From an uncultured Verrucomicrobiae bacterium (GTDB lineage: Bacteria; Verrucomicrobiota; Verrucomicrobiia; Limisphaerales; UBA11358): a DNA stretch of 64,000 nucleotides. Shown one piece after another: positions 2,606 to 56,848 of this stretch. Below the pieces are notes generated by a model. It saw only the letters and a program-made list of their open reading frames with translations. It made no database searches and had not been told where the DNA came from. Numbering within the stretch: the stretch's first letter is position 1; each line of letters begins with the position of its first letter. The stretch spans positions 9,723 through 73,722 of the forward strand of contig CAVYLE010000008.1 of the NCBI GenBank assembly GCA_963769285.1. The letters are read 5' to 3'. The position numbers and the translations under genes were made by a program.

Positions 2606-3254
2606 GCGCACAACAAGAATTAATGATTTGTTTCCCGACTGCGAATTGCTCATTGAGCCGAAATCGTACTCAACGGCGAAAAACATGCCAAAATATCTTC
2701 ACCCGTATTTTCAAGATATGTCTATAAATCAACGACTTGCAAAATTCGTTCATGTTTCGGGTGCGCTACGATGTCCCTGTTTCAGTTCGACGTTAGCAAT
2801 GTCCTGAATATGATATGTAATGTCCTTTTTATGTATAAAAACTATGGCCGATTTGTGTTGAAAAAAATGTAGTCAATGGATAAACTGTACTTAACGAATT
2901 AGCAAATATGTTTGCTGGAAAAAGGCGGAATAGTCGGCATTCAGTTGGAATTGGTTTGGGCGAGCAGGACTTTTAAATTGTGAACGTGTAAGCTGTTGCA
3001 CTTCACTATGATGCGAAAGTTCTGGAAGGGATGGCAAGGAAAAAGTGGATGATATTTGATATAAACGGACTGGACACTTTTTGTGCGTGGCCGGATTGCC
3101 GTAATGTTTGATTGCATTACCCTTGCCTGATGGTTTCCGAAAGTAAATGTGAAAATTTTTGTTTATTTGATGAAGTATCGAGCCTCGGTGGCTAAAGCGT
3201 TTAGCCTTGGGGATGGGAGTTCTGTGGCTTGTGCCTGACAAATGGAGATGCTAA

Positions 3255-4331
3255 ATGCTTTCTCAAGAACATCTTACTTTGCGCTTGGTGCGCCTCAAGC
3301 CGTCTGAGAAGTGGATCAATGGGGCGAACGGGCTATCGTTCGTGTTCCCGAAGGAAGGTGGCGGGAAATATGTTTCCACAGAGGTTACACAACGTCTTAC
3401 GCCTGGTGACGTTCTGGTTCTGAAAGGCGAAGGCGGACTTTGTGCCGATGATGGAGGTGAGATGGTTTTCTGGTTCTTTACCGCCCACTTTGAACACCTG
3501 TTCCCTCTGTTTGCCAGTAACGAAATCTGCCTGCTGCAAAACGTGACCGAAGGTTTCAAAGGATTCAAGTCGTATGGAGCCACCAGCCCACTGGCCGGGG
3601 AGTGCCACCGGCTGCTTGCAAAAGTTCCGCCCCAGTTCAACCTCAATCACCGCAGTCAGTTGCTGCGGGTGGTCGCTGCCATCTTAAGCGTGGAATTCAG
3701 CATCGCCCAACCCTCCCGGGTCGGATTCGTTAGTGCCGAGGAACACATGATCCAGGTCTTTGAAAAGTTGCCGGCCAATGAACTCTTGAGTTTGTCGGTC
3801 GGGGAACTGGCGTCCAGGTTTGGTTGCAGCAAGCGCCATCTCAACCGCCTGTTTCATCAGCGCTTTGGCATTTCCGTGGCCGCCTTGAGAATGGAGATGC
3901 GCCTGTTAAAAGCCGCGTCCTTGCTGCGGGATCCTGACACCAAAGTCATAAACGTGGCCGAAAAATGCAAATTCAATCATCTGGGACTCTTCAACACCTG
4001 CTTCAAAAGACGGTTTGGCGCCAGTCCGGGACAGTGGCGGAAGACCTCCGCCCATGCCGAGGGCCAGTCCGTTCGTCCGGTTAATGACAGCTTGGTCTGT
4101 CCTTTGCAATCTCATAGTTTGTGCCCATGGACCGCCAACGCCGATGACTGTCAACCGGCAGAAGGCGAGACGCCCAAAACTCAGAAGGCCGGCCCGGCAA
4201 GACTTGTTATTAGCATGCAGGTTCCGGATGAGCGCGTTGCGCACAAACCGGTGGCAAGTCAGCGAAAGAGCGCCGAAATTGCCGGCCGGCAAAACTTGCC
4301 CCGACCCGGTTCTTTAACCACAAAGAAATGA
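3255..4331 (+). CDS. AraC family transcriptional regulator
   Basis: C-terminal double HTH: LSVGELASRFGCSKRHLNRLFHQRFG...VINVAEKCKFNHLGLFNTCFKRRFGASPGQWRK. Confidence 0.85.
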   Translation: MLSQEHLTLRLVRLKPSEKWINGANGLSFVFPKEGGGKYVSTEVTQRLTPGDVLVLKGEGGLCADDGGEMVFWFFTAHFEHLFPLFASNEICLLQNVTEGFKGFKSYGATSPLAGECHRLLAKVPPQFNLNHRSQLLRVVAAILSVEFSIAQPSRVGFVSAEEHMIQVFEKLPANELLSLSVGELASRFGCSKRHLNRLFHQRFGISVAALRMEMRLLKAASLLRDPDTKVINVAEKCKFNHLGLFNTCFKRRFGASPGQWRKTSAHAEGQSVRPVNDSLVCPLQSHSLCPWTANADDCQPAEGETPKTQKAGPARLVISMQVPDERVAHKPVASQRKSAEIAGRQNLPRPGSLTTKK

Positions 4332-9060: not shown

Positions 9061-10347
9061 ATGAAAATCACCATTATCGGACTCGGCTACGTCGGATTGC
9101 CGTTATCGTTGCAATTTGCCCGCAGCGGCGTGACGGTCCTCGGACTGGATGTTGATCCGGCCAAGGTAAAGTTGCTCAACGCCGGACGCAGCTACATCCG
9201 GCACATCGGCTCCGCCGGCGTGCGCGAACAGGTGGCGGCGGAACGGTTCTCCGCCTCGGCGGACTTCGCCCGCGTCCGCGAAGCTGAAGCCGTCATTATT
9301 TGCGTCCCGACCCCGCTCAACAAAAACCGCGAGCCGGATATTTCCTATATCGTGAACACCGGCAAGGCCATCGCACCGTACCTGCGCAAAGGCACGCTGG
9401 TTGTTTTGGAGTCCACCACCTATCCCGGCACCACCGAGGATGAACTGCGCACGGTCCTTGAAGCCGGTTCGGGTTTCAAGGCCGGGGAAAATTTTCATCT
9501 GGCGTTCTCGCCGGAACGCGAAGACCCGGGCAATCCAAACAGCCAGGTGGCGAACATCCCCAAGCTGGTCGGCGGTTACACGCCGGCGTGCCTGAAACGC
9601 GCCGTCGCCCTTTACCGCAAGGCGATAAAAACCGTTGTTCCGATGTCCTCCTGTCGTGCGGCCGAGGCCACGAAGCTGTTGGAGAATATTTTCCGCAGCG
9701 TGAACATCGCGTTGGTGAACGAACTGAAACTGGTTTATGCCGCCATGGGCATTGATGTCTGGGAGGTTATCAACGCCGCAAAGACCAAACCGTTTGGTTA
9801 CATGCCGTTCTACCCCGGCCCCGGCCTGGGCGGGCATTGTATCCCCCTAGACCCGTTCTACCTGACCTGGAAGGCGCGGGAATACGGGCAGCATACGCGC
9901 TTCATCGAACTGGCCGGCGAGATCAATACCGCCATGCCGCGCTATGTCGTGGAGCGCACGGCTGAGGCCCTGAACTCACAACGCAAAGCCATCAATGGCG
10001 TCAGCATCCTCGTGTTGGGTCTGGCCTACAAAGCCAATGTGGATGACATGCGGGAATCGCCCGCCTTCCATCTGCTTGACCTGCTCAAAGCCCGCGGCGC
10101 AAACGTGGCCTATCACGACCCGCATATTCGCGTCATCGGTCCGACCCGCGAGCACGGCCACTGGGCCGGAACCAAATCCACGGGTTGGAACCGGCGGGTC
10201 ATCGGCTCGTTCGACGCGGTCATCATCTGCACGGCGCACCGGGCGGTGAATTACCGCCAGCTGGCGCAATGGGCGCCGTTGATTGTGGACACGCGCAACG
10301 CGATGAAAGGGGTCAAGACGCGGACGGGACAGGTTTGGCAGTCGTGA
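9061..10347 (+). CDS. nucleotide-sugar 6-dehydrogenase (UDP-GlcNAc/ManNAc dehydrogenase family)
   Basis: MKITIIGLGYVGLPLS Rossmann motif and catalytic GGHCIPLDPFYL, as in WbpA/WecC/TviB-type enzymes. Confidence 0.9.
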   Translation: MKITIIGLGYVGLPLSLQFARSGVTVLGLDVDPAKVKLLNAGRSYIRHIGSAGVREQVAAERFSASADFARVREAEAVIICVPTPLNKNREPDISYIVNTGKAIAPYLRKGTLVVLESTTYPGTTEDELRTVLEAGSGFKAGENFHLAFSPEREDPGNPNSQVANIPKLVGGYTPACLKRAVALYRKAIKTVVPMSSCRAAEATKLLENIFRSVNIALVNELKLVYAAMGIDVWEVINAAKTKPFGYMPFYPGPGLGGHCIPLDPFYLTWKAREYGQHTRFIELAGEINTAMPRYVVERTAEALNSQRKAINGVSILVLGLAYKANVDDMRESPAFHLLDLLKARGANVAYHDPHIRVIGPTREHGHWAGTKSTGWNRRVIGSFDAVIICTAHRAVNYRQLAQWAPLIVDTRNAMKGVKTRTGQVWQS

Positions 10348-33307: not shown

Positions 33308-35065
33308 ATGAAAACGAACCAGCCAGAGTCTGCTGTTAATTCCTCTTCTGCAGCTTCCAGTCCTGCAACCAGGCCAGATGGGGTTTCCGTCTCTCGCAAT
33401 CTTAAATCGCCAATGAAGTGGCTCTTACTTTTTCTGCCGTTTGGGTACCTTTGGTTTCATCTGGTCAATAACCTGCGTCTCGAGTGGACGACCAATCCGC
33501 AGTATGCCTTTGGCTGTCTGGTTCCTTTGCTTTGCCTCGGCCTGCTCATCCGGCGATGGCTGGCAGTAAAGGACGGTGAGGAAAAGCAGACAGCAGAAAC
33601 CAGAAAGCAGAAATTTACGGACCACGGACTCGAGAGGGGGAAGGAGAAAGCAGAAAGTAGTAAGCAGAAAGCAGTAATCCTTTCATTCGCGCTGTTGGCT
33701 TTCCTGTACTTGCCAACGCGTTTGATTGAGGCCGCAACGCCGGAATGGCGGCCTATCCAGTGGCTGCTTGGAATCGAAGCCATCGGGCTGACTCTCTGTG
33801 CCATTGATCTGGGCAAGGGGCGAGGCTGGTTGCGGCAACTGGCGTTTCCCATTCTTTTCTTTTTCGTGGCCATACCCTGGCCCTCGCCCATTGAAACGCC
33901 GATCATCCAGGCTCTGACCCGGATGAGTGCCTCGATTGTGATCGAGGTGCTGGGCTGGCTGGGAATTCCCGCGATGGCGCATGGCAATGTGATTGAGGTC
34001 GCCACCGGGATGGTCGGAATTGACGAAGCGTGCAGCGGCATTCGATCATTTCAAAGCAGTCTCATGATCTCCCTGTTTTTTGGCGAATTCTATGCCTTGA
34101 ACCGTTCCCGCCGTTGGTTGCTGATTCCAGCAGGGTTTGTTTTCTCCATGACTTTCAACGTTTGCCGCATGTCGCTGCTGACGGTAGTCGCCGCGAGAAA
34201 GGGTATTCCCGCCATCGAGGAATACCACGATCCGACCGGAATCACGATTGCGATACTTTGCACGCTGGGACTCTGGGGGCTGGCGCTTTTGTTGAGGAGG
34301 CAGCCCGGTGAAGTGCGGGCCAGCGCCCAACCCTCAACCCTCAACTCCTCGCTCGCGATTTATCGGAGTCAACTCTCAACTTCCAACTCCCAACCCTCAA
34401 CTCTCAACCGCTTGGCCTTCGGTCTTATCGTCTGGCTGGTCTTGGTCGAAGCCGGCATCGAGTTGTGGTATCGCCATCTGGAGTCGCAGCTTAAACCCGG
34501 TCCGAACTGGTCGTTGAACTTTCCCCAGGACAACACCACGTTGCAAGACATGCCGATACCCGCCGATACGCGGTACCTGCTGCGCTTCGATGAAGGCAAG
34601 CAAGTCGCCTGGACGGAGGCCGACGGAACACGCTGGCAGGTTTTCTACTCCAGTTGGCTGCCGGGCCGGGTGGCGGGGTATCTCGCCAAAAGGCATACTC
34701 CGGAGATTTGTCTTACGGCAGCCGGTATAAAACTCCTTTCCGGCCCGGAATTAACCATGATGAATGTCCACGGTGTGGAATTGCCCGTGCGAAGCTACGT
34801 GTTCGAAACGGCGGGTGGCCCGATCAACGTCTTCCATTGCCGATGGGAAGCCGGAGTGGATGAAAGCGCTTACGTGCAGCATGAATCAGCACGCTTCAAT
34901 CTCATACGCGGGATATGGGCCGGCCGGGGTAACAAGGGCCAAAAGGTTCTGGAAATCATCATCTCCGGCATGGACGATCCTGCACAGGCAAGGGCGGCGT
35001 TGGTGCGCCAACTGGAAAAAATGATCACCGTTAGCAGTCCGTTAAAGAAGCAGGAGCCGACGTGA
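33308..35065 (+). CDS. exosortase fused to an EpsI-family domain
   Basis: Exosortase core IDEACSGIRSFQSSLMISLFF and FNVCRMSLL within about 8 TM segments. C-terminal EpsI-like part ..WQVFYSSWLPGRVAGYLAKRHTPEICLTAAGIKL. Two low-complexity inserts (see findings). Confidence 0.85.
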   Translation: MKTNQPESAVNSSSAASSPATRPDGVSVSRNLKSPMKWLLLFLPFGYLWFHLVNNLRLEWTTNPQYAFGCLVPLLCLGLLIRRWLAVKDGEEKQTAETRKQKFTDHGLERGKEKAESSKQKAVILSFALLAFLYLPTRLIEAATPEWRPIQWLLGIEAIGLTLCAIDLGKGRGWLRQLAFPILFFFVAIPWPSPIETPIIQALTRMSASIVIEVLGWLGIPAMAHGNVIEVATGMVGIDEACSGIRSFQSSLMISLFFGEFYALNRSRRWLLIPAGFVFSMTFNVCRMSLLTVVAARKGIPAIEEYHDPTGITIAILCTLGLWGLALLLRRQPGEVRASAQPSTLNSSLAIYRSQLSTSNSQPSTLNRLAFGLIVWLVLVEAGIELWYRHLESQLKPGPNWSLNFPQDNTTLQDMPIPADTRYLLRFDEGKQVAWTEADGTRWQVFYSSWLPGRVAGYLAKRHTPEICLTAAGIKLLSGPELTMMNVHGVELPVRSYVFETAGGPINVFHCRWEAGVDESAYVQHESARFNLIRGIWAGRGNKGQKVLEIIISGMDDPAQARAALVRQLEKMITVSSPLKKQEPT

Positions 35066-43013: not shown

Positions 43014-43715
43014 TTACGCCATTTGTCGCTTGCGCAAGATCCGCAGCGTGCTCGCGCCAAACGGCAGCAGCAGCAACGCGCCCGCGATCATCGTCGTAGG
43101 CTCGGGAACGGGGAATATGGTGATCGAATCGATGTTTGCGCTCGCGGGGATAGTGGCGGTGCCGTTATTCCAATCGCCGATCTCGACAGCGGTCTCATAG
43201 ACCGTCATCTGCCCAAACGTAGTAGTTCCGTATGCGGTGCTGTCAAGCGTTGACAGGGTAACACCCCAGTACGTGTCCGAGGTGAGAGGACTCGTAGCGT
43301 AATCATAAAACACATGGATTTGGGAAGAACCGTTCAGATCCGGTCCGCCCATGCTGATGACCCCGATGTAACCACCGCCGGGCGCATACAGATAGGTAAG
43401 CCAGTAAGGTTGAGCCCCATTTGGCCCGCTCGAACTGAGAAGATCGTAACTCGCGCTGAAAGAGTTTAAAGTTCCCAGTGAAGGAAGCCCAACGTTAGCA
43501 GCCTTGACAAAGACTGCCGGGGCACCGCCATTGAGACCGGAGTCGGTGGTGTAAAGTTGCGCCACGTCCGGTGTCCCGGCGACATATTGCGCGACACCAC
43601 CATTACCAGAGTATTTCAAGCCGCTAAGATCGGTGCCCGAAATGGTGATCAACGCGCTGGCGCTCATTGCGGCGGCCAAACTGATCGTGAATAATGCTAT
43701 TTGTAGTTTTTTCAT
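43014..43715 (-). CDS. PEP-CTERM sorting-domain protein (class 1 tail)
   Basis: ATG 43715 inside ORF 43014..43778. MKKLQIALFTISLAAAMSASA signal. C-terminus VPEPTTMIAGALLLLPFGASTLRILRKRQMA. Confidence 0.85.
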   Translation of the reverse strand: MKKLQIALFTISLAAAMSASALITISGTDLSGLKYSGNGGVAQYVAGTPDVAQLYTTDSGLNGGAPAVFVKAANVGLPSLGTLNSFSASYDLLSSSGPNGAQPYWLTYLYAPGGGYIGVISMGGPDLNGSSQIHVFYDYATSPLTSDTYWGVTLSTLDSTAYGTTTFGQMTVYETAVEIGDWNNGTATIPASANIDSITIFPVPEPTTMIAGALLLLPFGASTLRILRKRQMA

Positions 43716-43855
43716 GTTTTCTTTTTTATTTTTGGACCGCTGCGGAAAGCGACTTCTGGCTTGACGTCCAAGCCACAACTCATTCTTTCACGCGAGTGGG
43801 TATGGTTTCTTCAAACTGACTAATCTCTGCCCATTGTGCAGAACGCATTGAATTT

Positions 43856-43894
43856 ATCTATACGTTTTTGGGACATCATTAGTCACTTTTCGGA
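43856..43894. promoter_or_regulatory. conserved promoter/operator module, copy 1
   Basis: atctat-N7-tgggacatcattagtcacttttcgga. About 140-180 nt upstream of ATG 43715. Confidence 0.6.
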
Positions 43895-44273
43895 TATAGA
43901 TTCTGAGCGGCCCGGACTTCCCTGCGTTGCTTGAAAAGGACATGCGGGACTTGGTCACAAATTTAAAACTGCCCAGTGAAGTCGCAAACCGAAGAACTTC
44001 ACGGGCCTCGGCCCATGAAGCAGGCAGCCCACTTTCACAGGCCAAGGCAAGCGGACCCGCCTACGTCCAACTTCGGCGCGGCAAGAAGCTGAAATTACAA
44101 AATCAAAAGCTGAAACCGGAGTGCCGGGAGGGCGGAGGCCAGCGGAGAAAAAACTGAAATTGTGAAAGCTGAAATCTGAAATCAGAGACGAGTGGGTCTT
44201 TCAGCTTTCAAGTTTCAGCATTTTCCAACCGGGCACGTCAGTGCCGCGGAACTTGTGCGCAGTGGTCAAGTCC

Positions 44274-44349: not shown

Positions 44350-45168
44350 TTACGCCATTTGTCGCTTGCGCAAGATCCGCAGCGTGCTCGCCCCAAATGG
44401 CAGCAGTAGCAACGCACCCGCGATCATCGTCGTGGGTTCGGGAACAGGCACAGGTACGGCGTCCACCTTGACGAGCATATCCTGATAGTCAACGTCCCCG
44501 CCTTGCAACGCAAGATCTTCCCATCCCAAAAGGTACTCACCCGGATCCCATGACTCAGTTGTCGAGCCGGAAGCTGCCCAGCTGCCGAGGCCAGAGGCGC
44601 TCAGATTTAACGTACGATCCACAGCGGTTTGCAAAGTTACCATGTGATCGTCACCACCATTTTTGTTCTGTTGAGAATACCATGTCGGGCCACCCGCTGT
44701 TTGAAGGTAAAACCCGAAGGCGCTTCCAACATAGAGGCTCTGATTATTCACGGTGGCCGTGCCACCTGAGAATGTCACGGTCTCCGTGGATACGCCGGAA
44801 GCAGAACCCGTAAACACCTGGAGCATTTGACCGTTATTCAGGTTATAAATCCCGAATGAATTGATACCGGCATTCCCGGCAATCTCCAGCAGCAACGCGG
44901 TAGAAGCCGTCCCACTGCCGAGGATGCCCGGGACCGTCCACGTCTGATCCGTAACCGGGCTGTTGTAATCCGCGACCCGGTTCGCTGCGGCATTGACGTC
45001 GTAGGAAGAGTCGTTCAGCAAAGTCTGCATGACGGTAGCCAAAGTGCCCGGAGGATTCCCGTCCCAACTGCCCGAGGTGGCCACCGTCGTAAGGGCTGCT
45101 TGTGCACACAATGTCGCGCCGGCCAAACCCAAGGCTGATATTGCCAATTGAAATTTCAGCATTTTCAT
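44350..45168 (-). CDS. PEP-CTERM sorting-domain protein with a DUF4114-like segment
   Basis: MKMLKFQLAISALGLAGATLCAQA signal; GGDVDYQDMLVKVDAV; C-terminus VPEPTTMIAGALLLLPFGASTLRILRKRQMA. Confidence 0.85.
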   Translation of the reverse strand: MKMLKFQLAISALGLAGATLCAQAALTTVATSGSWDGNPPGTLATVMQTLLNDSSYDVNAAANRVADYNSPVTDQTWTVPGILGSGTASTALLLEIAGNAGINSFGIYNLNNGQMLQVFTGSASGVSTETVTFSGGTATVNNQSLYVGSAFGFYLQTAGGPTWYSQQNKNGGDDHMVTLQTAVDRTLNLSASGLGSWAASGSTTESWDPGEYLLGWEDLALQGGDVDYQDMLVKVDAVPVPVPEPTTMIAGALLLLPFGASTLRILRKRQMA

Positions 45169-45320
45169 ATTTTCCTTTTGATTTTTGTTTTATTGTGACC
45201 CTCGTGAAAAACGACTTCTGGCTTGACGTCTTAGCCAGAATTCATTCCTTCACGCGATCGGTCTAATTCTCTGCAAACTGAGTTTGTACACTGGCCATCG
45301 TCCACGAATAATGGAATTAC

Positions 45321-45360
45321 ATCTATCCCATTTTGGGACTTCTTTATTCACAATTGGGCC
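45321..45360. promoter_or_regulatory. conserved promoter/operator module, copy 2
   Basis: atctat-N7-tgggacttctttattcacaattgggcc. About 155-190 nt upstream of ATG 45168 and about 340 nt upstream of the divergent DUF4184-like gene. Confidence 0.6.
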
Positions 45361-45695
45361 ATGCATTCTGAGCGGCCCGGACTTCCCTGCATTGCTTGAA
45401 AGGGACATGCTTTGATCACTTTTGGGACGTGGGCCAAAATGAAAAGCTGAAATCGGGAAAGCAGAAAGCAGAAATCACAATGCAATCAAAAGCTGGGGGT
45501 ACGGGGAAGAGGTGGAAAGCGGGGGAAAGGCTGAAGGCTGAAAGCCGCGCAAAAGGCTTCGCCTCACGCGGTGGGGGAATATCCAACATCCAATAACAGA
45601 TGCCGAAGGGTGGAAGGCTGAAGTCAAAGGTCCGTGGTCTGCAACTCAAATCGGGCTGGTCGTTTCACAGTTTTGCCGCCAATTTCGATCCGTCA

Positions 45696-47165: not shown

Positions 47166-47864
47166 TTATGCTGTGCGGTTCTTGCGCAGAATCCGCAGCG
47201 TGCTTGCCCCAAAAGGCAGCAGCAGCAACGCGCCGGCAATCATTGTGGTAACCTCAGGAATTTGTTCGAACGATTGTTCAATTTGAGAAACAGTAACGAA
47301 ACCGCCATTGACGATACCAAAACCAATGTCTTTGGTTATAATCAGCGTTTGTTGAGGAGGAATGATTGACAAAATGTCACCTGCCTCTGCAAAAGGATCG
47401 CTAAGGTCAGTCGCGCTCAGAGCGCTGTGACCGATGGCCGTCACACTCCCTGGAACGTAAGCATTTTCGACAATCGAAAGGTATGCTCCCCCCGCTGGCT
47501 GTGCACTGCCCGTATAACTTTGGTCAATCGCAATGATTTTCCCGGGGTTCGCTGTTACGGTGTAGCCGAGCAAAAGATCCGCAGTAGCCGGCCCGCCACT
47601 TACGAGGCTGATATTTCCTCCCCACGTGAGGGTATAATAATCAGGAGTCACTTCCGTCGCTGTAACTAAAATATTGGCGGCACTAAACGTAGTCAAGCCA
47701 CTCTCGTTGTAGGAGAACCCGCTAAACGTTTTATCGCCAATGCTCAGACTCGCGCCATTCGCAAGGTTAGCCAACGTATCCGTAACAAAACTCGCTTGAG
47801 CTGTTTGTATCATCGCGGCCATGGCTATCACACTAGCCATAGCAATTAGATTTTTTCGTATCAT
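47166..47864 (-). CDS. PEP-CTERM-type protein with a variant PEV motif (paralog of 47922..48611)
   Basis: MIRKNLIAMASVIAMAAMIQTAQA signal. C-terminus IPEVTTMIAGALLLLPFGASTLRILRKNRTA. Body alignable to the upstream paralog. Confidence 0.8.
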   Translation of the reverse strand: MIRKNLIAMASVIAMAAMIQTAQASFVTDTLANLANGASLSIGDKTFSGFSYNESGLTTFSAANILVTATEVTPDYYTLTWGGNISLVSGGPATADLLLGYTVTANPGKIIAIDQSYTGSAQPAGGAYLSIVENAYVPGSVTAIGHSALSATDLSDPFAEAGDILSIIPPQQTLIITKDIGFGIVNGGFVTVSQIEQSFEQIPEVTTMIAGALLLLPFGASTLRILRKNRTA

Positions 47865-47921: not shown

Positions 47922-48611
47922 TTACGCCGTGCGGTTCTTGCGCAAAATGCGCAGCGTGCTCGCCCCAAACGGCAGCAGCAGCAACGCGCCCGCGATCATC
48001 GTCGTAGGCTCAGGAACCACCTGATGGAACGATTGTGTGACCTGAGAAATAGTAATATAACCCCCGTTTGGAGAAGTCACACCAAAGGCAATGTCTTTGG
48101 TTACATAGAGAACACTCTCCGGAGGAATGATATCGAGAAGATCGGATGCTTCTGCTGGTGGATCGCTCATGTCGCCGACCTGAAGGTGGCTGAATCCGGC
48201 CACCCTCCCGCCAAAAGCTCCAACGGCCGCTGTTTCGTCAACTGCGATCAATCCATTGATGGCACTGCCTGTATAAGCCTGGTCAATCTTATTAATCACC
48301 CCACCATTCGCGGTCACAATATAGTTAAGTACCAAGTCAGCAGTACCAACACCACCAGAAACATAAGATATGTTACCTGACCAAGTAAGATAATCAATCC
48401 CGCCACTTTCAGTCGCTGTGACAATAATTTTGTTGGGATCAAAGGAAGTCAAACCACTGGGGAGATAACTGAAGCCGCTGAAGGTTTTATCGTCAATGGT
48501 GAGAGTCCCACCGGCAGCAAGCTGAGCCAACGTAATGCTCGCTTGAACTGTTGGTATCATCGCCACCATGGTAGTCACGGCGAAGATGACAATTAATCTG
48601 TTTCGTATCAT
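47922..48611 (-). CDS. PEP-CTERM sorting-domain protein (class 1 tail)
   Basis: MIRNRLIVIFAVTTMVAMIPTVQA signal. C-terminus VPEPTTMIAGALLLLPFGASTLRILRKNRTA. Only 57 bp and no hairpin before the next gene. Confidence 0.85.
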   Translation of the reverse strand: MIRNRLIVIFAVTTMVAMIPTVQASITLAQLAAGGTLTIDDKTFSGFSYLPSGLTSFDPNKIIVTATESGGIDYLTWSGNISYVSGGVGTADLVLNYIVTANGGVINKIDQAYTGSAINGLIAVDETAAVGAFGGRVAGFSHLQVGDMSDPPAEASDLLDIIPPESVLYVTKDIAFGVTSPNGGYITISQVTQSFHQVVPEPTTMIAGALLLLPFGASTLRILRKNRTA

Positions 48612-48722: not shown

Positions 48723-48762
48723 GTCTATCGCATTTCGGGACATCTTTGCTCACAAATAGGAC
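48723..48762. promoter_or_regulatory. conserved promoter/operator module, copy 3
   Basis: gtctat-N7-cgggacatctttgctcacaaataggac. About 110-150 nt upstream of ATG 48611. Confidence 0.6.
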
Positions 48763-49075
48763 ATTGAGGACATGGACTCTGAGCGGCCCGGACTTTGCTA
48801 AGTTGCATGAAACGGACACACTTTATCACTTTTAGGACATAAGCCCAAATTAAAGCTGAAATCAGGGCCCAGTGAAGTGGTTGAAGACATCACGGGCCTC
48901 GGCCAATGAAGTAGGCAGCCTACTTCACTGGCCAAGGAAAGCAGACCCGCCTGCGTCCAACTTCGGCGCGGCAAGAAGCAGAAATCACAATGAAATCAAA
49001 AGCTGGCAGGACGGGAAAGAGGCGGAGAGCGTGCTGTGTGCGCTGACTGAGCCTTATGACAAATCATTCCAGTCA

Positions 49076-49106
49076 ATTTTGGGACTTTCGTATTCACAAA
49101 CAGGAC
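49076..49106. promoter_or_regulatory. conserved box, copy 4 (flanking hexamer degenerate)
   Basis: attttgggactttcgtattcacaaacaggac. About 130 nt upstream of the plus-strand Gloeo_Verruco gene, in the same absolute orientation as the other copies. Confidence 0.5.
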
Positions 49107-49236
49107 AAAAGACTCGAATAACCTTGCAATTTTGAGCTTCGGTGGCACTATCGCCATGTTTCTAACATTAGAAGGTTTGAAGTACGACGTCCCGGCCCCC
49201 CCAAAGGGTGCTCAAACGCCAAAACGAGAGATTCAA

Positions 49237-51295: not shown

Positions 51296-52015
51296 TTATG
51301 CCGCGCGATTCCTGCGCAAGATCCGCAGCGTGCTCGCCCCAAACGGCAGCAGCAGCAACGCACCCGCGATCATCGTCGTAGGCTCAGGAACAATAGCCAA
51401 CTGGTCCTGATTGAGTTCATAAGTTTGGCCACTTGGATTCTGGACGTCTGTGTAGTATGCCCCGTTGAAGAGGTTCAGGGCGATCACACCATACGCTCCA
51501 AGGGAATCATTGAAGACGGTCGTGTCGTTCTTGCCTGTCCCAGTTTTAGCAAGGTTATAGTAGTAGGTTCCATCAACACCATTCATAGTGCTCAGTTGGG
51601 CAAAGGTTATTTCATTCTCAAGATACCAAATAGCGTTCTGAACTTGACCCGCTTGTGAAGCGGTCAATGTCCCCAACCCTCCATTCCGGAATTGGCTGTA
51701 AAGATAGGCTGTGCCAATCGAAATATTGTCCATCGGGAGACCCGTGTTCGGATCGATCGCGTCCACACCTGCACCGCCGGCCACAGCACCGGTATTCATT
51801 TTATACTGGTACGTATTCCCTGGGCCAAACTCCTCCTGGTACTCGATGCAGAACGTCTGGAATGTGCCGAGGCCCGTAGTCGCAGCCGTGAACTCACCGC
51901 CGTTACCCCAGGAATAGGCACCCTGAGTCAGGGTAACCGATCCATCGAAACTGGCATACAAGTTGGTTGCGAAGAGAACGCCTGCAATCCCGATTAACGT
52001 AGATAACTTTTTCAT
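51296..52015 (-). CDS. PEP-CTERM sorting-domain protein (class 1 tail)
   Basis: ATG 52015 inside ORF 51296..52081. MKKLSTLIGIAGVLFATNLYA signal. C-terminus VPEPTTMIAGALLLLPFGASTLRILRRNRAA. Confidence 0.85.
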   Translation of the reverse strand: MKKLSTLIGIAGVLFATNLYASFDGSVTLTQGAYSWGNGGEFTAATTGLGTFQTFCIEYQEEFGPGNTYQYKMNTGAVAGGAGVDAIDPNTGLPMDNISIGTAYLYSQFRNGGLGTLTASQAGQVQNAIWYLENEITFAQLSTMNGVDGTYYYNLAKTGTGKNDTTVFNDSLGAYGVIALNLFNGAYYTDVQNPSGQTYELNQDQLAIVPEPTTMIAGALLLLPFGASTLRILRRNRAA

Positions 52016-52116: not shown

Positions 52117-52157
52117 GTCAATGCCAAAATGGGACATCTTTGTACACTTTTGAGACA
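52117..52157. promoter_or_regulatory. conserved promoter/operator module, copy 5
   Basis: gtcaat-N7-tgggacatctttgtacacttttgagac. About 100-140 nt upstream of ATG 52015. Confidence 0.6.
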
Positions 52158-52212
52158 TGCGGGACATTTGCGACGGGCACCAGTCGCTGCGGTCGGATTA
52201 AAGGGAAGCTGA

Positions 52213-52341
52213 ACGGATTCAAGAGAGCAGAACTTGAAGTGCTATAACGCCCTGATTCGTTACGCAGTCTGCCGGGTGGAAAACTGCGCCGCGCAAGCCG
52301 GCACCGTCCGCTACCTGAAGGCAAAACCTGGAGGTCAGTAA
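52213..52341 (+). pseudogene. relic 3' fragment of a LuxR-type regulator gene
   Basis: 52228-52290 (cagaacttgaagtgctataacgccctgattcgttacgcagtctgc) aligns with the 3' end of the intact regulator (ctgcacttgaagtgcttgaacgcgctgattcgctacgcggtctgc, about 53320-53365). Translation: QNLKCYNALIRYAVC versus LHLKCLNALIRYAVC. Confidence 0.55.
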
Positions 52342-52707: not shown

Positions 52708-53388
52708 ATGGTTGAAACTTTAAAAGGTAAATCCCCATCACCACAAACGATTTTCATCGTGGAGGATCACCCGGTCTTTCGCGAAGGTTTGGCGCAGCTT
52801 GTAAAAGCCGAGCAGGATTTGACTGTATCCGGGCAGGCGGGTGACGCCGCCCAGGCCATCCCGGCCATCGCCCGTCTAAAACCGGATCTGGTGTTGGTGG
52901 ATATCACTCTACCTGGAAAAAGCGGACTGGAATTGATCAAAGAACTTCGGTCCCAAAACAGCCGGATCAAGCTGCTGGTTGTCTCCATGCACGATGAGGC
53001 GCTTTACGCCGACAGGGTCCTGCGAGCCGGCGGTGACGGCTACATCATGAAACAGGAAGATCCGCAGGAGATCATCCGCGCCATTCGGGATGTTCTTGGC
53101 GGACACACCTATGTCAGTGAACAGGTGATGGCAGGCAGATCAACGATTTCCCAGGAGCGCCGCTCCAAGGCGAAAACCCGGCCGCTTGAAAAGCTCACGG
53201 ACTCAGAGATCGAAATCCTGGCATTGCTTGGCCAGGGCAAAGGCAACCTGGAAATCGCCCAACAACTCCACTTAAGTGATGCAACCGTCTCCACTCACTG
53301 CACACAGATCCAAAAAAAGCTGCACTTGAAGTGCTTGAACGCGCTGATTCGCTACGCGGTCTGCTGGGCGGAAACAGGCCCTTCGTAA
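52708..53388 (+). CDS. NarL/LuxR-family response regulator (REC plus HTH)
   Basis: IFIVEDHPVFREGL..DLVLVDITLPGKSGLELI..; LTDSEIEILALLGQGKGNLEIAQQLHLSDATVSTH. Confidence 0.9.
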   Translation: MVETLKGKSPSPQTIFIVEDHPVFREGLAQLVKAEQDLTVSGQAGDAAQAIPAIARLKPDLVLVDITLPGKSGLELIKELRSQNSRIKLLVVSMHDEALYADRVLRAGGDGYIMKQEDPQEIIRAIRDVLGGHTYVSEQVMAGRSTISQERRSKAKTRPLEKLTDSEIEILALLGQGKGNLEIAQQLHLSDATVSTHCTQIQKKLHLKCLNALIRYAVCWAETGPS

Positions 53389-53433
53389 GCCGGGCCTTTC
53401 CGCTCGCGACGTAAAGCCCGTTGCGAATCCACA

Positions 53434-56400
53434 TCAGCCAGCCCCTCCACACGGCACACGCACAGTGATGGTTGTGCCTTGCTTGGGCGCGGATTCCACC
53501 GTGCAGGTTCCGCCCAAAAACTCAGCCCGTTCGCGCATATTTGTGAGGCCGATTCCACGCCGTTTCCCCTTGCCAGCCTTGCCTCGCTTGGAATCAAATC
53601 CCCGCCCATCGTCCTGGATTTTCAAGACGATGGAATTGCCGTGGAATGCGATCCGGAGCCGGACCTCCCTGGCGTGGGCATGTTTTTCGATATTATTGAC
53701 AGCCTCCTGCATGATGCGAAAGAGATTCAGTTCAAGCGCCGGGGCCAGGCGTTGGTCAATACGTGCGATGCTGTATTTCACCTTCAACTTTGTCCGCGAC
53801 CGCAGCTCCTCGCAGAAATTGCGGGAGGCGGCGGCCAACCCGAACTCATCCAGGTCACTGGGGCGGAGGTTGTGTGCGATGCGGCGGTTTTCCTCCAGCG
53901 CCTGAACGAGCAGCCGGCTGCAGCGCGCGAGGATTTCCCTGGCCGCGGGGTTTAGCGACACCTCACCGGCTTCCACCTTGCGGAGCCTCATTTTTGCAGA
54001 AGCAATGAGTTGGTTGACTCCGTCATGCAATTCGCGCGCCACGCGCAAACGCTCCGCTTCCTGCGCCTCGATGATGCGCAGAGGCAAAAGCCGCAGCTCT
54101 TCTTCGACTCGTTTGCGTTCAGTAATATCGCTGGCTACACCAATGAGTCCAATAGTTCTGCCTTCGTTGTTCTTGATGGCAGAAGTGCTGAGTGAAATCG
54201 GGAATTCAGTTCCATCTTTTCTGTGGTTCAGGAGTTCGCCCTGCCAGGAGCCCCCGAGAGTCTGCCGGAAAATGTGCTCGCAAAGCCCGGGCGGATTCTT
54301 CGGCGACTGAAGAAAATCCGGGTTCCTTCCCAAGACTTCCTCCTGGCGATAGCCGTAGGCTTTAACGAAACTCTGATTGACAAAGGTGAAACGGTTTTCG
54401 CTGTCGGTAATACAAATGAGATCCCGGGCGCTTTGAACCGCGTAGGCCAGCAACCGAATTTGTTCCTCCGCCCGCTTGCGCTCGGTGATGTCTTGCGCCA
54501 CTCCCACTAATCCAATAAGGCGGCCATCCGGATTCACGATTTTGGAAGTGCTCAGAAAGACCGGGAATTCCGTCCCGTCTTTCCGGCGGTCCAACACCTC
54601 GCCGCGCCAGCCGTCAAGGCGGGTTTGCTCCAGAATCTCTGATAACAGCGTCGGTGGATTGTTCGGAGAAAAGAGTATGTCCGGGGTTTTTCCCAAAATC
54701 TCCGCCTCCGTATAACCGTAGGCCTGCCAAAAGGCGCGGTTCACAAATGTGAACCGATCCTCCAGGTCCGTGATGCAAATCATTTCGGCCGTGCTTTCGA
54801 CAGCGTGAGCCAGCATCGCCACCTGCGCTTCTGCGCGCTTGCGCTCGGTGATGTCCTGGATGGTCCCCTCGAAATATTGAACGGCACCGCTGGCATCATA
54901 AACGACGTGCGCGTTCAAGCTGACCGAGATTATGCTGCCGTCTTTGCGGTAATTTTCCTCTTCAAATCCTCGAATCGTCCCTTGTTCCAGCAGCAAACGT
55001 TTCATTTCCGCCCGTTTTTCGAGTGAGACATAAATCTGCCGGCCGACATCGGCCACGCTGGACATCATTTCCTGGGGCGACTGGTACCCGAACATCCGGG
55101 CCAATGCCGGGTTGGCGATGAGGATACGGCCTTCCGGCGTCGTCCGAAAGATTCCTTCGGTTGCGTTCTCGAAGATACTGCGGTACCGGGCCTCCGCATT
55201 CCGCAACGCATCCTCCGTTTCCTTGCGCCGGGTAATGTCGCGCATGAAAGCGAACACGCAGGGCTCCCGCAATTGGAGAAACGTCGCGATGACTTCCACC
55301 TCGATGATCCGTCCATCTTTGCAGCGGTGGCGGGTCTCGAAACGGTCGCTCCCGGATTGGGTAATGCGTTGTGCGTGTTGGACGACCAGTTCCGGAGAAG
55401 GCTCGTTGACCTCCACATCGCTGGTGTGCATGGAAAGCAATTCCTGGCGGGAATAACCGCTCATGCGGCAGTATGCCTCGTTCACGTCCACGATATTCCC
55501 TTCAAGATCCAGCATCCAGAAACCCTCCATCGCGGCGCCAATGATTTTTTGGCTCAATTCCTCGTGTTCCTTGAGCGCCTCCTCGGTTCGCTTCTGCCTG
55601 GTGAGATCGGTATTGATGCACACCACGCTCGCGGACTGATCCTTCTCCCCAGGCACCAATGTCCACCGGCTGTAAACGATGAGCGGCTGGCGGGCCTTGG
55701 TCAATATATGCAACTCGCCATCCCATTCGCCGGCTTGCATCAGTTTCTCCTGCGCTTCGGCAAATGTCGCAGCGTCCTCAAAAAATAAATCCGTGGTGCG
55801 GCGTTCCCGGACTTCGTTCGCAGTCCAACCCAAAATCCGCTCGGCCCCTTTATTGAAATAATGAATGCGCCCTTCCAGGTCGTGGATGATGATCGCATCG
55901 TGTGCTTGATCGAGAATATGCAACAGTTCCCGGATCCTGGCTTCGGCCTGCTGCCGCGCAGTAATGTCACGCATCACAACGACGATCCCGCGGGATTGGC
56001 TGTCCGCGCCGGTTGACACGGCGGCACTTAATTCCACCGGGAAACGGCTGCCATTTTTCCTGAGCATCGTGTACTCAGCGTTTCTCATGACGCCGGTTTC
56101 GAGCATGATGGTTGTGCCCGCCTTCATGCGCTCATGCTCCTCTGGCGGCGTCAAGTCGAAGGCGCTTTTCCACAGCAATTCCCCCGGGCCCGCATAACCG
56201 AGCATTTCCACGGCCTGCTGGTTGGCCATAGTCAGCCGGCCTCGGAGGTTGATCATGCCAACGGCGTCAGGCAGGATTTCAACCAACCGCCGATAATGTT
56301 GTTCGCTGGCCCGCAATGCGGCGGTGGTGTCGCGGAGACGCACGATCGTTCGAATGCGCGCCAGGAATTCATCCGGGTTCACTGGTTTGACCATGTAGTC

Positions 56401-56709
56401 ATCGGCGCCTGTTTTCGCGGCATCGACCTTGTCGGCGGCGCTGGTCGCCATTCCGGAAACCAGAACGACAAAAATGTCCAATAATGCCGCGTCGGCCTTG
56501 ATTTGCCTGCAGATGTCAATCCCGTTCAGGTCCGGCAGCCTTACGTCCAGCAGCACCAGATCCGGCCGCCTTTCGCGCGTCATCTGGAGACACTGCTGCC
56601 CGTTCGACGCCTCCCAAACTTCGTAACCTGCACGGCGCAGAATCATTGAAAAAACTTCAAGGATGTCGGGTTCATCATCCACAACGAGAATGCGGGTCGC
56701 TCTATTCAT
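53434..56709 (-). CDS. hybrid sensor kinase: N-terminal REC, six PAS domains, HisKA_3, HATPase
   Basis: ATG 56709 inside ORF 53434..56763. ILVVDDEPDILE..LVLLDVRLPDLNG. Six PAS units, each ending in D(I/L)T.(R/Q)(K/Q) (DITARQ, DLTRQK, DITRRK, DITERK x3). H-box ELHDGVNQLIA. GIGLTNMRERAEFLGG. Confidence 0.9.
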   Translation of the reverse strand: MNRATRILVVDDEPDILEVFSMILRRAGYEVWEASNGQQCLQMTRERRPDLVLLDVRLPDLNGIDICRQIKADAALLDIFVVLVSGMATSAADKVDAAKTGADDYMVKPVNPDEFLARIRTIVRLRDTTAALRASEQHYRRLVEILPDAVGMINLRGRLTMANQQAVEMLGYAGPGELLWKSAFDLTPPEEHERMKAGTTIMLETGVMRNAEYTMLRKNGSRFPVELSAAVSTGADSQSRGIVVVMRDITARQQAEARIRELLHILDQAHDAIIIHDLEGRIHYFNKGAERILGWTANEVRERRTTDLFFEDAATFAEAQEKLMQAGEWDGELHILTKARQPLIVYSRWTLVPGEKDQSASVVCINTDLTRQKRTEEALKEHEELSQKIIGAAMEGFWMLDLEGNIVDVNEAYCRMSGYSRQELLSMHTSDVEVNEPSPELVVQHAQRITQSGSDRFETRHRCKDGRIIEVEVIATFLQLREPCVFAFMRDITRRKETEDALRNAEARYRSIFENATEGIFRTTPEGRILIANPALARMFGYQSPQEMMSSVADVGRQIYVSLEKRAEMKRLLLEQGTIRGFEEENYRKDGSIISVSLNAHVVYDASGAVQYFEGTIQDITERKRAEAQVAMLAHAVESTAEMICITDLEDRFTFVNRAFWQAYGYTEAEILGKTPDILFSPNNPPTLLSEILEQTRLDGWRGEVLDRRKDGTEFPVFLSTSKIVNPDGRLIGLVGVAQDITERKRAEEQIRLLAYAVQSARDLICITDSENRFTFVNQSFVKAYGYRQEEVLGRNPDFLQSPKNPPGLCEHIFRQTLGGSWQGELLNHRKDGTEFPISLSTSAIKNNEGRTIGLIGVASDITERKRVEEELRLLPLRIIEAQEAERLRVARELHDGVNQLIASAKMRLRKVEAGEVSLNPAAREILARCSRLLVQALEENRRIAHNLRPSDLDEFGLAAASRNFCEELRSRTKLKVKYSIARIDQRLAPALELNLFRIMQEAVNNIEKHAHAREVRLRIAFHGNSIVLKIQDDGRGFDSKRGKAGKGKRRGIGLTNMRERAEFLGGTCTVESAPKQGTTITVRVPCGGAG

Positions 56710-56848
56710 GGGGTGACACTTGCTTGGTTCACAAACCACAGACCATATAGCTGGCTGCCTCAAAAAGGCAAATGCTGAAATGAACTACGAGCCCGAAGCG
56801 GGAGTATTTGCGCCGGGCCGCGCGCGCGACAGGTTTATTCCGCCAACC

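Follow-up and report, generated by a model that had tools for sequence, protein, structure and literature searches.

The DNA analysed here is a stretch of 64,000 nucleotides (positions 9,723 to 73,722, forward strand, of contig CAVYLE010000008.1, assembly GCA_963769285.1) from an uncultured Verrucomicrobiae bacterium (Limisphaerales, UBA11358) and is referred to below as the window. It contains five genes, A to E, for secreted proteins with a C-terminal PEP-CTERM sorting signal (..VPEPTTMIAGALLLLPFGASTLRILRK..), which adjoin a large exopolysaccharide (EPS) locus including an exosortase gene. The genes have a cassette structure, and gene conversion has homogenised their 3' ends (94% identity over 173 nt). 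The subject of this report is a block of short, phased sequence boxes that lies upstream of gene A, of gene B and of the operon C/D, called copies 1, 2 and 3 in the following. As judged from sequence comparison, an activator site of two boxes is spread through the genus, and this block is probably its lineage-specific upstream part, derived by duplication.

Anatomy of the box arrays upstream of the PEP-CTERM genes

An earlier reading of the letters alone, here called the original prediction, had listed GGAC boxes about two helical turns apart together with a conserved block, and had taken them as the mark of a cooperatively binding transcription factor. Its positions are reproduced exactly by sequence reading and by a script: on the plus strand, GGAC stands at 43871, 43914, 43938 and 43947 in copy 1 (with a degenerate GGAT at 43892), at 45336, 45379, 45403 and 45425 in copy 2 (with a degenerate GGGC at 45356-59), and at 48738, 48759, 48768, 48774, 48790, 48814 and 48835 in copy 3. 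Neighbouring boxes are 21-24 bp apart, in agreement with the proposed two-turn spacing; the series is 21-22-24-(9 or 22) in copies 1 and 2 if the degenerate box is included and 21-31-24-21 in copy 3, where a 9-bp insertion contributes two further boxes (48768, 48774). The four to seven GGAC boxes per copy compare with 0.8, 1.0 and 1.5 expected from dinucleotide shuffles of copies 1, 2 and 3 (probability of at least the observed number 0.001, 0.003 and <0.0002), and since a scan of the three copies found no GTCC on the plus strand, all boxes have the same orientation. The recurrence of a unit CAC-N5-GGAC is borne out in the form TCAC-N5-GG(A/G)AC, and the conserved block contains an 18-mer, TCTGAGCGGCCCGGACTT, which is identical at 18 of 18 positions in all three copies, with 0.07 matches expected per window. 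The 5.37-Mb assembly holds three occurrences of the 18-mer, all of them ahead of PEP-CTERM genes, and beyond these copies only chance near-matches within unrelated coding sequence were found. Being paralogous upstream regions, with 83% and 61% identity over 90 nt, the copies do not count as three independent observations; independent support comes from other genomes.

On the minus strand, which is the gene strand, the GGAC boxes become GTCC boxes within a unit ATGTCCC-N4-GTGA. Alignment of the upstream regions resolves five units, P1 to P5, numbered from the gene outward. P1 (ATGTCCC-N5-GGGAT) continues into a -35-like AT(A/T)GA(C/T), P2 (ATGTCCC-N4-GTGA(A/T)) lies 21 bp upstream of P1, P3 (AAGTCCGGGCCGCTCAGAAT) 22 bp beyond P2 (31 bp in copy 3), P4 (ATGTCCCTTTCAAGCAAC) 24 bp beyond P3, and P5 ((A/C)GTCCCAAAAGTGA) 21-22 bp beyond P4. 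P2 and P1 together constitute the core module, in which head-to-tail repeats of 15-17 bp are joined by a 6-bp linker with a period of 21 bp, while P3 to P5 form the upstream extension (Table 1); in copy 1 a 13-nt deletion took away the right half of P5. P5-P4 and P2-P1 are identical at 27 of 30 nt up to the second GTCCC, and the core matrix gives P5-P4 a score of 23 bits. P5-P4 thus appears to be the core repeated in tandem, and duplication of the two-box module in tandem is the probable origin of the array.

The sequence AT.GA is invariant, and its distance from P1 does not change. It takes the form TTGACG in the gene E module and in a sixth module, which is located on contig C5 and also precedes a PEP-CTERM gene, and in both a TATAAA comes 17 nt later; the corresponding hexamers of copy 1 are TAGATA and CACAAT. 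A strict promoter scan made no call at either of these pairs of sites. The promoters of the copies look weak and sigma-70-type, as expected for activator-dependent promoters.

Relative to P1 the boxes are offset by -21, -43, -67 and -88/-89 bp. The helical repeat in vivo derived from AraC looping experiments is about 11 bp, and at this value every box falls within 0.1 turn of P1, whereas a repeat of 10.5 bp would leave P4 and P5 off by 0.4-0.5 turn. The predicted location of the boxes on the same face over 100 bp is thus possible: it stands if the helical repeat is near 11 bp and is lost at 10.5 bp through the drift of P4 and P5.

A further, degenerate module about 300 bp upstream of the copy 3 array has no gene of its own downstream and adjoins the start of a plus-strand gene with GloVer repeats (Table 1).

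Table 1. Features of the window that are discussed in the text; P1 to P5 denote the box units, PWM a position weight matrix.
Feature	Position	Strand	Remarks
Variant box pair	2760..2840	+	AATGTCCT-N13-AATGTCCT and one ATGTCCC further upstream; ~430 bp before the AraC-family gene
AraC/XylS-family regulator	3255-4331	+	DNA-binding domain ~residues 165-268 (HTH_18/AraC); head of EPS/exosortase locus
Exosortase	33308-35065		PF09721
PEP-CTERM gene A	43014-43718	-	
Copy 1, putative -10	43833-43838	-	CACAAT
Copy 1, core module	43856..43897	-	P2 ATATCCGAAAAGTGA, P1 ATGTCCCAAAAACG, -35-like ATAGAT; PWM scan
Copy 1, extension	43898..43957	-	upstream of PEP-CTERM gene A
Copy 1, P3	43902-43919		invariant 18-mer
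Copy 1, P4	43926-43941		GTCCTTTTCAAGCAAC
Copy 1, P5 remnant	43947-43951		GGGAC
PEP-CTERM gene B	44350-45168	-	
Copy 2, core module	45321..45362	-	P2, P1 and ATAGAT; model match E=1.5e-14
Copy 2, extension	45363..45432	-	upstream of PEP-CTERM gene B
Copy 2, P3	45367-45384		
Copy 2, P4 box	45402-45406		
Copy 2, P5	45416-45428		GTCCCAAAAGTGA
PEP-CTERM gene D	47166-47864	-	operon C/D
PEP-CTERM gene C	47922-48611	-	operon C/D
Copy 3, core module	48723..48764	-	PWM and model scans
Copy 3, extension	48765..48842	-	upstream of PEP-CTERM operon C/D
Copy 3, P3	48778-48795		
Copy 3, P4 box	48814		
Copy 3, P5	48826-48838		
Weak degenerate two-box module	49067..49108	-	TTGTCCTGTTTGTGAATACGAAAGTCCC; PWM 17 bits
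PEP-CTERM gene E	51296-52015	-	
Gene E, core module	52117..52158	-	without extension; followed by TTGACG-17 nt-TATAAA; divergent from NarL-type regulator gene
NarL/FixJ-family response regulator	52708-53388	+	
Partner histidine kinase	53434-56763	-	N-terminal receiver domain and multiple PAS domains

The core module and its extension in related genomes

Pattern scans covering all species genomes brought up the core module in a dozen metagenome-assembled genomes (MAGs) of Verrucomicrobiota/Limisphaerales from peat, palsa and soil. A sequence-only model (R1), built from 28 distinct modules and searched in 151 genomes of the genus, matches 45 of them with roughly 130 hits in all, often with several clustered copies each, and the core is therefore regarded as a genus-wide promoter element. 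The distance between P2 and P1 is 21 bp in 28 of 28 modules, and in the examples read the modules stand before genes beginning with signal peptides (signal-peptide/PEP-CTERM genes).

Most of the 28 modules consist of two boxes only, with unrelated sequence upstream, and a blastn search with the block against 40 relatives gave a single match (genome G022). The full five-box array was found elsewhere in the MAGs SPRUCE 514 (L053) and SPRUCE 288 (L060) and in two metagenome contigs (L149, L155). In these four sequences the spacing is 21/22-24-22-21 and GTCC is intact in every box from P3 to P5, while the spacers vary; in SPRUCE 672 the extension is truncated to P3 and the right half of P4. From this distribution the extension is best described as an optional add-on of one promoter lineage. 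The original prediction had named two sequence-level findings that would speak against it, namely spacing that is not conserved in related genomes and a block that belongs to a dispersed repeat. Since the same spacing recurs in four other sequences, which partly reflects shared descent, and since the genome search finds no dispersed repeat of the kind of repetitive extragenic palindromes or miniature inverted-repeat transposable elements (REP/MITE-like), a candidate rejected on the three occurrences of the 18-mer, each before a PEP-CTERM gene, neither was observed.

Candidate regulators and readings of the array

The reading towards which we lean, with some reserve, is that the block is the upstream part of a multi-site activator operator, bound most likely by the protein of the AraC/XylS family whose gene heads the EPS locus. 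A transcription factor would fill the boxes cooperatively, its proximal molecule contacting RNA polymerase in the manner of a class II-like activator, and the extra boxes P3 to P5 would boost occupancy or sensitivity at a subset of the PEP-CTERM genes. We infer that a protein binds at all, which protein this is, where transcription starts and that the factor activates rather than represses. The array would most likely represent a new regulon element, which in kind is an ordinary activator operator. As to the regulator array first proposed, same-strand repeats of the core element do lie upstream of putative PEP-CTERM promoters with conserved spacing; what has to be qualified is its reach, as the extension is limited to one promoter sub-lineage, and its sufficiency, as the GGAC boxes alone do not explain the best-conserved stretch of about 40 nt, TTTCAAGCAAC..AGGGAAGTCCGGGCCGCTCAGAAT.

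The operators of XylS at Pm and of AraC at araI1-I2 are composed of 15-bp units with a 6-bp linker and a 21-bp period, and their proximal unit borders directly on the -35 element. The array resembles such class II-type operators in its asymmetric direct repeats of 15-17 bp with a 21-bp period, in a proximal unit that would abut or overlap a putative weak -35 and in the presence of an AraC-family gene in the same locus with related boxes upstream of it. We know of no characterised AraC/XylS member with a TGTCCC...GTGA motif. The box variants upstream of the AraC-family gene are conserved in four species; the AATGTCCT pair is kept in G045 and one box of it in G041 and G042, the region being 76-81% identical overall. 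G022 has only one module, and this immediately precedes its AraC ortholog; G047 (numbered G079 among the 151 genomes) and G140 each have a module in divergent orientation no more than about 0.5 kb from the ortholog. Across the 151 genomes, AraC ortholog and module occur together in 36, the module alone in 9, the ortholog alone in 12 and neither in 94 (odds ratio ~31, uncorrected for phylogeny or MAG incompleteness).

The arrangement in G022 (L022 1105-1520, G022:C7) comprises a B-type module and leader hairpin that drive a truncated PEP-CTERM open reading frame running into the AraC ortholog, whose open frame measures 399 amino acids compared with 358 in the window; it looks like recombination has placed the regulator under its own target promoter. 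Three AraC orthologs from three species, with 78-82% identity (G041/G052:C1:390394-391479, G042/G053:C8:124978-126063 and G134:C16:40092-41174) contain one in-frame TGA each, yet align over the full 358 amino acids, so the TGA could be an earlier true stop with an alignable low-complexity tail, the sign of a pseudogene or a site of read-through.

Several observations weigh against the preferred reading. Unlike AraC/XylS operators, the array has five units instead of two, the internal spacing of P1 and P2 differs by 1 nt, and P1 is often a palindrome (TCCCA-N3-TGGGA), which fits a dimeric helix-turn-helix protein better than an AraC monomer with two helix-turn-helix motifs. P3 and P4 have just GTCC(C) in common with the consensus unit, which does not account for the conservation of their right halves, GGGCCGCTCAGA and TTTCAAGCAAC. 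In L092 the block is recognisable, yet all three upstream GTCC boxes are mutated, and in G022 and L157 unrelated sequence has taken the place of everything beyond (GGC)CGCTCAGAAT on the upstream side, so that the extension is dispensable. Nine genomes with a module have no AraC ortholog in the assembly, including G054 (95% complete) and G086 (90% complete). Finally, the gene for the NarL/FixJ-type response regulator is found beside divergent modules as well, here next to gene E and in six other genomes, and its own association with the module is also strong (odds ratio ~16, likewise uncorrected for phylogeny or MAG incompleteness).

The last points lead to the alternative that the same array is read by this NarL/FixJ-type regulator under the control of its multi-PAS kinase, with phosphorylated dimers placed every ~22 bp and oligomerising as far as the -35, as for BvgA, which we regard as rather unlikely. 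The regulator gene lies about 550 bp from the gene E module, and its orthologs (55-89% identity) have a divergent module 150-350 bp upstream in G018, G010, G023, G045, G042 and G048; in the 151 genomes both occur in 32, the module alone in 13, the regulator alone in 14 and neither in 92. The closest solved relatives of the protein are NarL and DevR/DosR, the DosR box contains GGGAC/GTCCC half-sites, and the footprint of a BvgA dimer equals the 21-24-bp spacing. The palindromic form of P1 is frequent across species, with the matched variant TCCCG-N3-CGGGA in L086, which would suit a dimer, whereas P2 to P5 are no palindromes and keep the conserved left half GTCCC only. Against this alternative also stand the weaker association with the module compared with the AraC-type gene and two genomes with consensus modules: G052 (the SPRUCE 514 MAG; 96% complete, 7 contigs) combines the full five-box array and an AraC protein of 82% identity with no NarL-type regulator match even at E <= 1e-45, and G022 (93% complete) has no response-regulator ortholog. 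In our alignment the recognition-helix residues differ from K188, V189 and K192 of NarL, a difference that says nothing about specificity. Comparison with known arrays gives a similar picture: in the BvgA arrays at Bordetella fha and ptx, sites are likewise spaced every ~22 bp from far upstream to the -35 and are filled cooperatively, which may serve as an analogy, and as in the BvgA and DosR systems a NarL-family regulator and a complex sensor kinase adjoin a target promoter, the DosR half-site containing GTCCC; unlike in BvgA arrays or the Dev box, P2 to P5 are not inverted repeats and the regulator is absent from two near-complete box-bearing genomes.

The AraC-type and NarL-type genes are often only 2-5 kb apart, and their co-occurrence profiles are therefore not independent. 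The telling genomes and the phylogenetic profiles lean slightly to the AraC-type protein and are not decisive, and the site architecture is ambiguous, as asymmetric 21-bp direct repeats at the -35 favour AraC/XylS and the P1 palindrome favours a dimeric NarL-type protein. As putative binder we would place the AraC-type regulator first, with a little less than even confidence, the NarL-type regulator second as a tentative candidate, and some other or additional factor third. Next to the intact regulator gene, the stretch 52221-52312 (plus strand) carries a remnant of a second copy of the C-terminus of the response regulator (..KCYNALIRYAVC.., 76% nucleotide identity to 53313-53404); it lies between the gene E promoter and the intact gene and has the appearance of a decayed duplicate.

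A different question is whether the extension has a function at all. It might be a relic of the core duplication that spread with its promoter cassette by recombination or gene conversion among PEP-CTERM genes, in which case the phasing would merely mirror the 21-bp period of the duplicated unit; we hold this to be improbable. It would account for the near identity of P5-P4 to P2-P1 and its score against the core matrix, for the occurrence of the extension in only about five genomes or contigs and its truncation in SPRUCE 672, and for the cassette structure and gene-converted 3' ends of the genes. The dispensability in G022 and L157, the half-deleted P5 of copy 1 and the box decay in L092 argue against selection on the extension. 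Selection is argued for by the 18-mer of P3, which is invariant in seven distinct sequences although the adjoining spacers differ at about one-quarter to one-third of positions, by the unchanged GTCC in all P3-P5 boxes of complete arrays and by the box-making insertion of copy 3, whose 9 bp, roughly one helical turn, added two boxes; these features speak against a functionless relic.

More doubtful still is the idea that the stretch from P4 to P3, TTTCAAGCAAC-N8-AAGTCCGGGCCGCTCAGAAT, is the site of a second regulator or a second upstream promoter that depends on an activator. Nowhere is the alignment better conserved than in this stretch, which does not look like the right half of the unit, and CGCTCAGAAT is kept in G022 and L157; because it is retained where the remainder is replaced, CGCTCAGAAT behaves as part of the core. 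Motifs like TCAGAATCC (CTGAAATCG, CTGAAGTCA) precede P2 in unrelated modules and may belong to the P2 site rather than to a second one. A second promoter could be suspected from CAGAAT, which occupies positions 39-44 counted from the A of ATGTCC of P4 exactly as CACAAT of copy 1 does from P1; it is opposed by the absence of a -35-like hexamer at the right distance, by the finding that no transcript contigs begin there and by the fact that promoter spacers are not normally conserved.

Work on the control of PEP-CTERM genes and exosortases has centred on Proteobacteria, in which this control is sigma-54-dependent, and a literature search on the control of PEP-CTERM genes found nothing for Verrucomicrobia. 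A report on Aquincola (PMC9850573) describes RpoN-dependent control of PEP-CTERM genes of the PrsK/PrsR type, and the array resembles the system set out there in being a dedicated cis element before exosortase substrates that links them to an EPS/exosortase locus. It differs in that the promoters are sigma-70-type in appearance and that the candidate regulators are AraC- or NarL-type proteins and not sigma-54 enhancer-binding proteins. No sigma-54 -24/-12 element was found: the pattern TGGCAC-N5-TTGC (up to two mismatches) has no gene-strand match within about 390 nt upstream of genes A to C, on which basis a sigma-54 promoter was rejected, and the window as a whole has 35 matches compared with 42 expected.

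Under the preferred reading of an AraC-bound operator, we suggest tentatively, and as something short of probable, that this uncultured peat-soil Limisphaerales genus uses a sigma-70-type 'PEP-CTERM box' in which an autoregulated AraC activator would recognise tandem TGTCCC-N4-GTGA units and in which promoter strength would be tuned by the five-box duplication; the activator possibly acts downstream of the multi-PAS kinase and the NarL-type regulator. If true, such control would stand apart from the PrsK/PrsR-RpoN system of Proteobacteria as an independent solution. Given that PEP-CTERM tails reach very high summed depth in metatranscriptomes, such a switch would bear on surface or aggregate building by abundant soil bacteria. 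The analysis yields a defined motif, two named candidate regulators and a naturally occurring set of promoters that carry two, three or five boxes.

Transcription around the arrays

RNA evidence comes from contigs of close relatives in four peat and permafrost metatranscriptomes; these contigs are evidence of presence and not of absence, and give no transcription start. Over the PEP-CTERM tail at 43029-43111 the summed contig depth reaches ~8,500 (X3), spread over many organisms, and contigs also span parts of the gene A coding body and the leader hairpin at 43742-43795. Coverage dwindles and stops within the 43793-43839 bin of copy 1, and from 43840 to 44027 the depth is 0 in all four metatranscriptomes. 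At copy 2, contigs again span the leader, with mere traces over the array, while mapping of E-type promoters was uninformative. This depth pattern is that of a non-transcribed operator and unlike that of an abundant small RNA, within the limit that contigs cannot prove absence.

A small RNA transcribed divergently from the block, the other option raised by the original prediction, is hardly credible, and so is a structured 5' element: although the block is conserved and intergenic, with a plus-strand gene in divergent orientation at copies 2 and 3, its predicted RNA folds on both strands of copies 1 to 3 are no better than those of shuffles (z -0.7 to +1.3) and disagree between copies, the only Rfam match in the window is a tRNA outside the block, no convincing plus-strand promoter was found for it, and it has zero or very low depth in the very metatranscriptomes that hold the leader and tail of the family. 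An invertible promoter was rejected as well, since there are no conserved flanking inverted repeats and the orientation is constant in all species, and a possible IHF site in TTTCAAGCAA is off consensus as judged by eye.

Further observations concern the surroundings of the arrays. The nucleotide-conserved tail at 43029-43111 ranks among the most abundant sequences of the family in the peat and permafrost metatranscriptomes. The leader hairpin GTGGCTTGGACGTCAAGCCAG of genes A and B (43742-43795 and 45205-45258) is transcribed in relatives and is kept in several MAGs along with the B-type promoter. A terminator-like hairpin, GCTTCATGGGCCGAGGCCCGTGAAGT, with a T-rich tail (43996-44021 on the minus strand, and 48887-48925) forms part of a repeated element found ahead of both copy 1 and copy 3 and may insulate their promoters from read-through; near the hairpin there is a CGCCGAAGTTGGACG element with about seven copies in the genome. 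This element and the runs of GCTGAAA directly upstream of the array are low-copy dispersed repeats. Short repeats of the GCTGAAA/GCAGAAA type are found at 45440-45477, with similar runs at 44090-44220 and 48850-48870, and such repeats upstream of the arrays reach a depth of ~3,000 in the wetland metatranscriptome X8. The flanks of the transcribed repeats are heterogeneous, and related repeats are therefore transcribed in many organisms.

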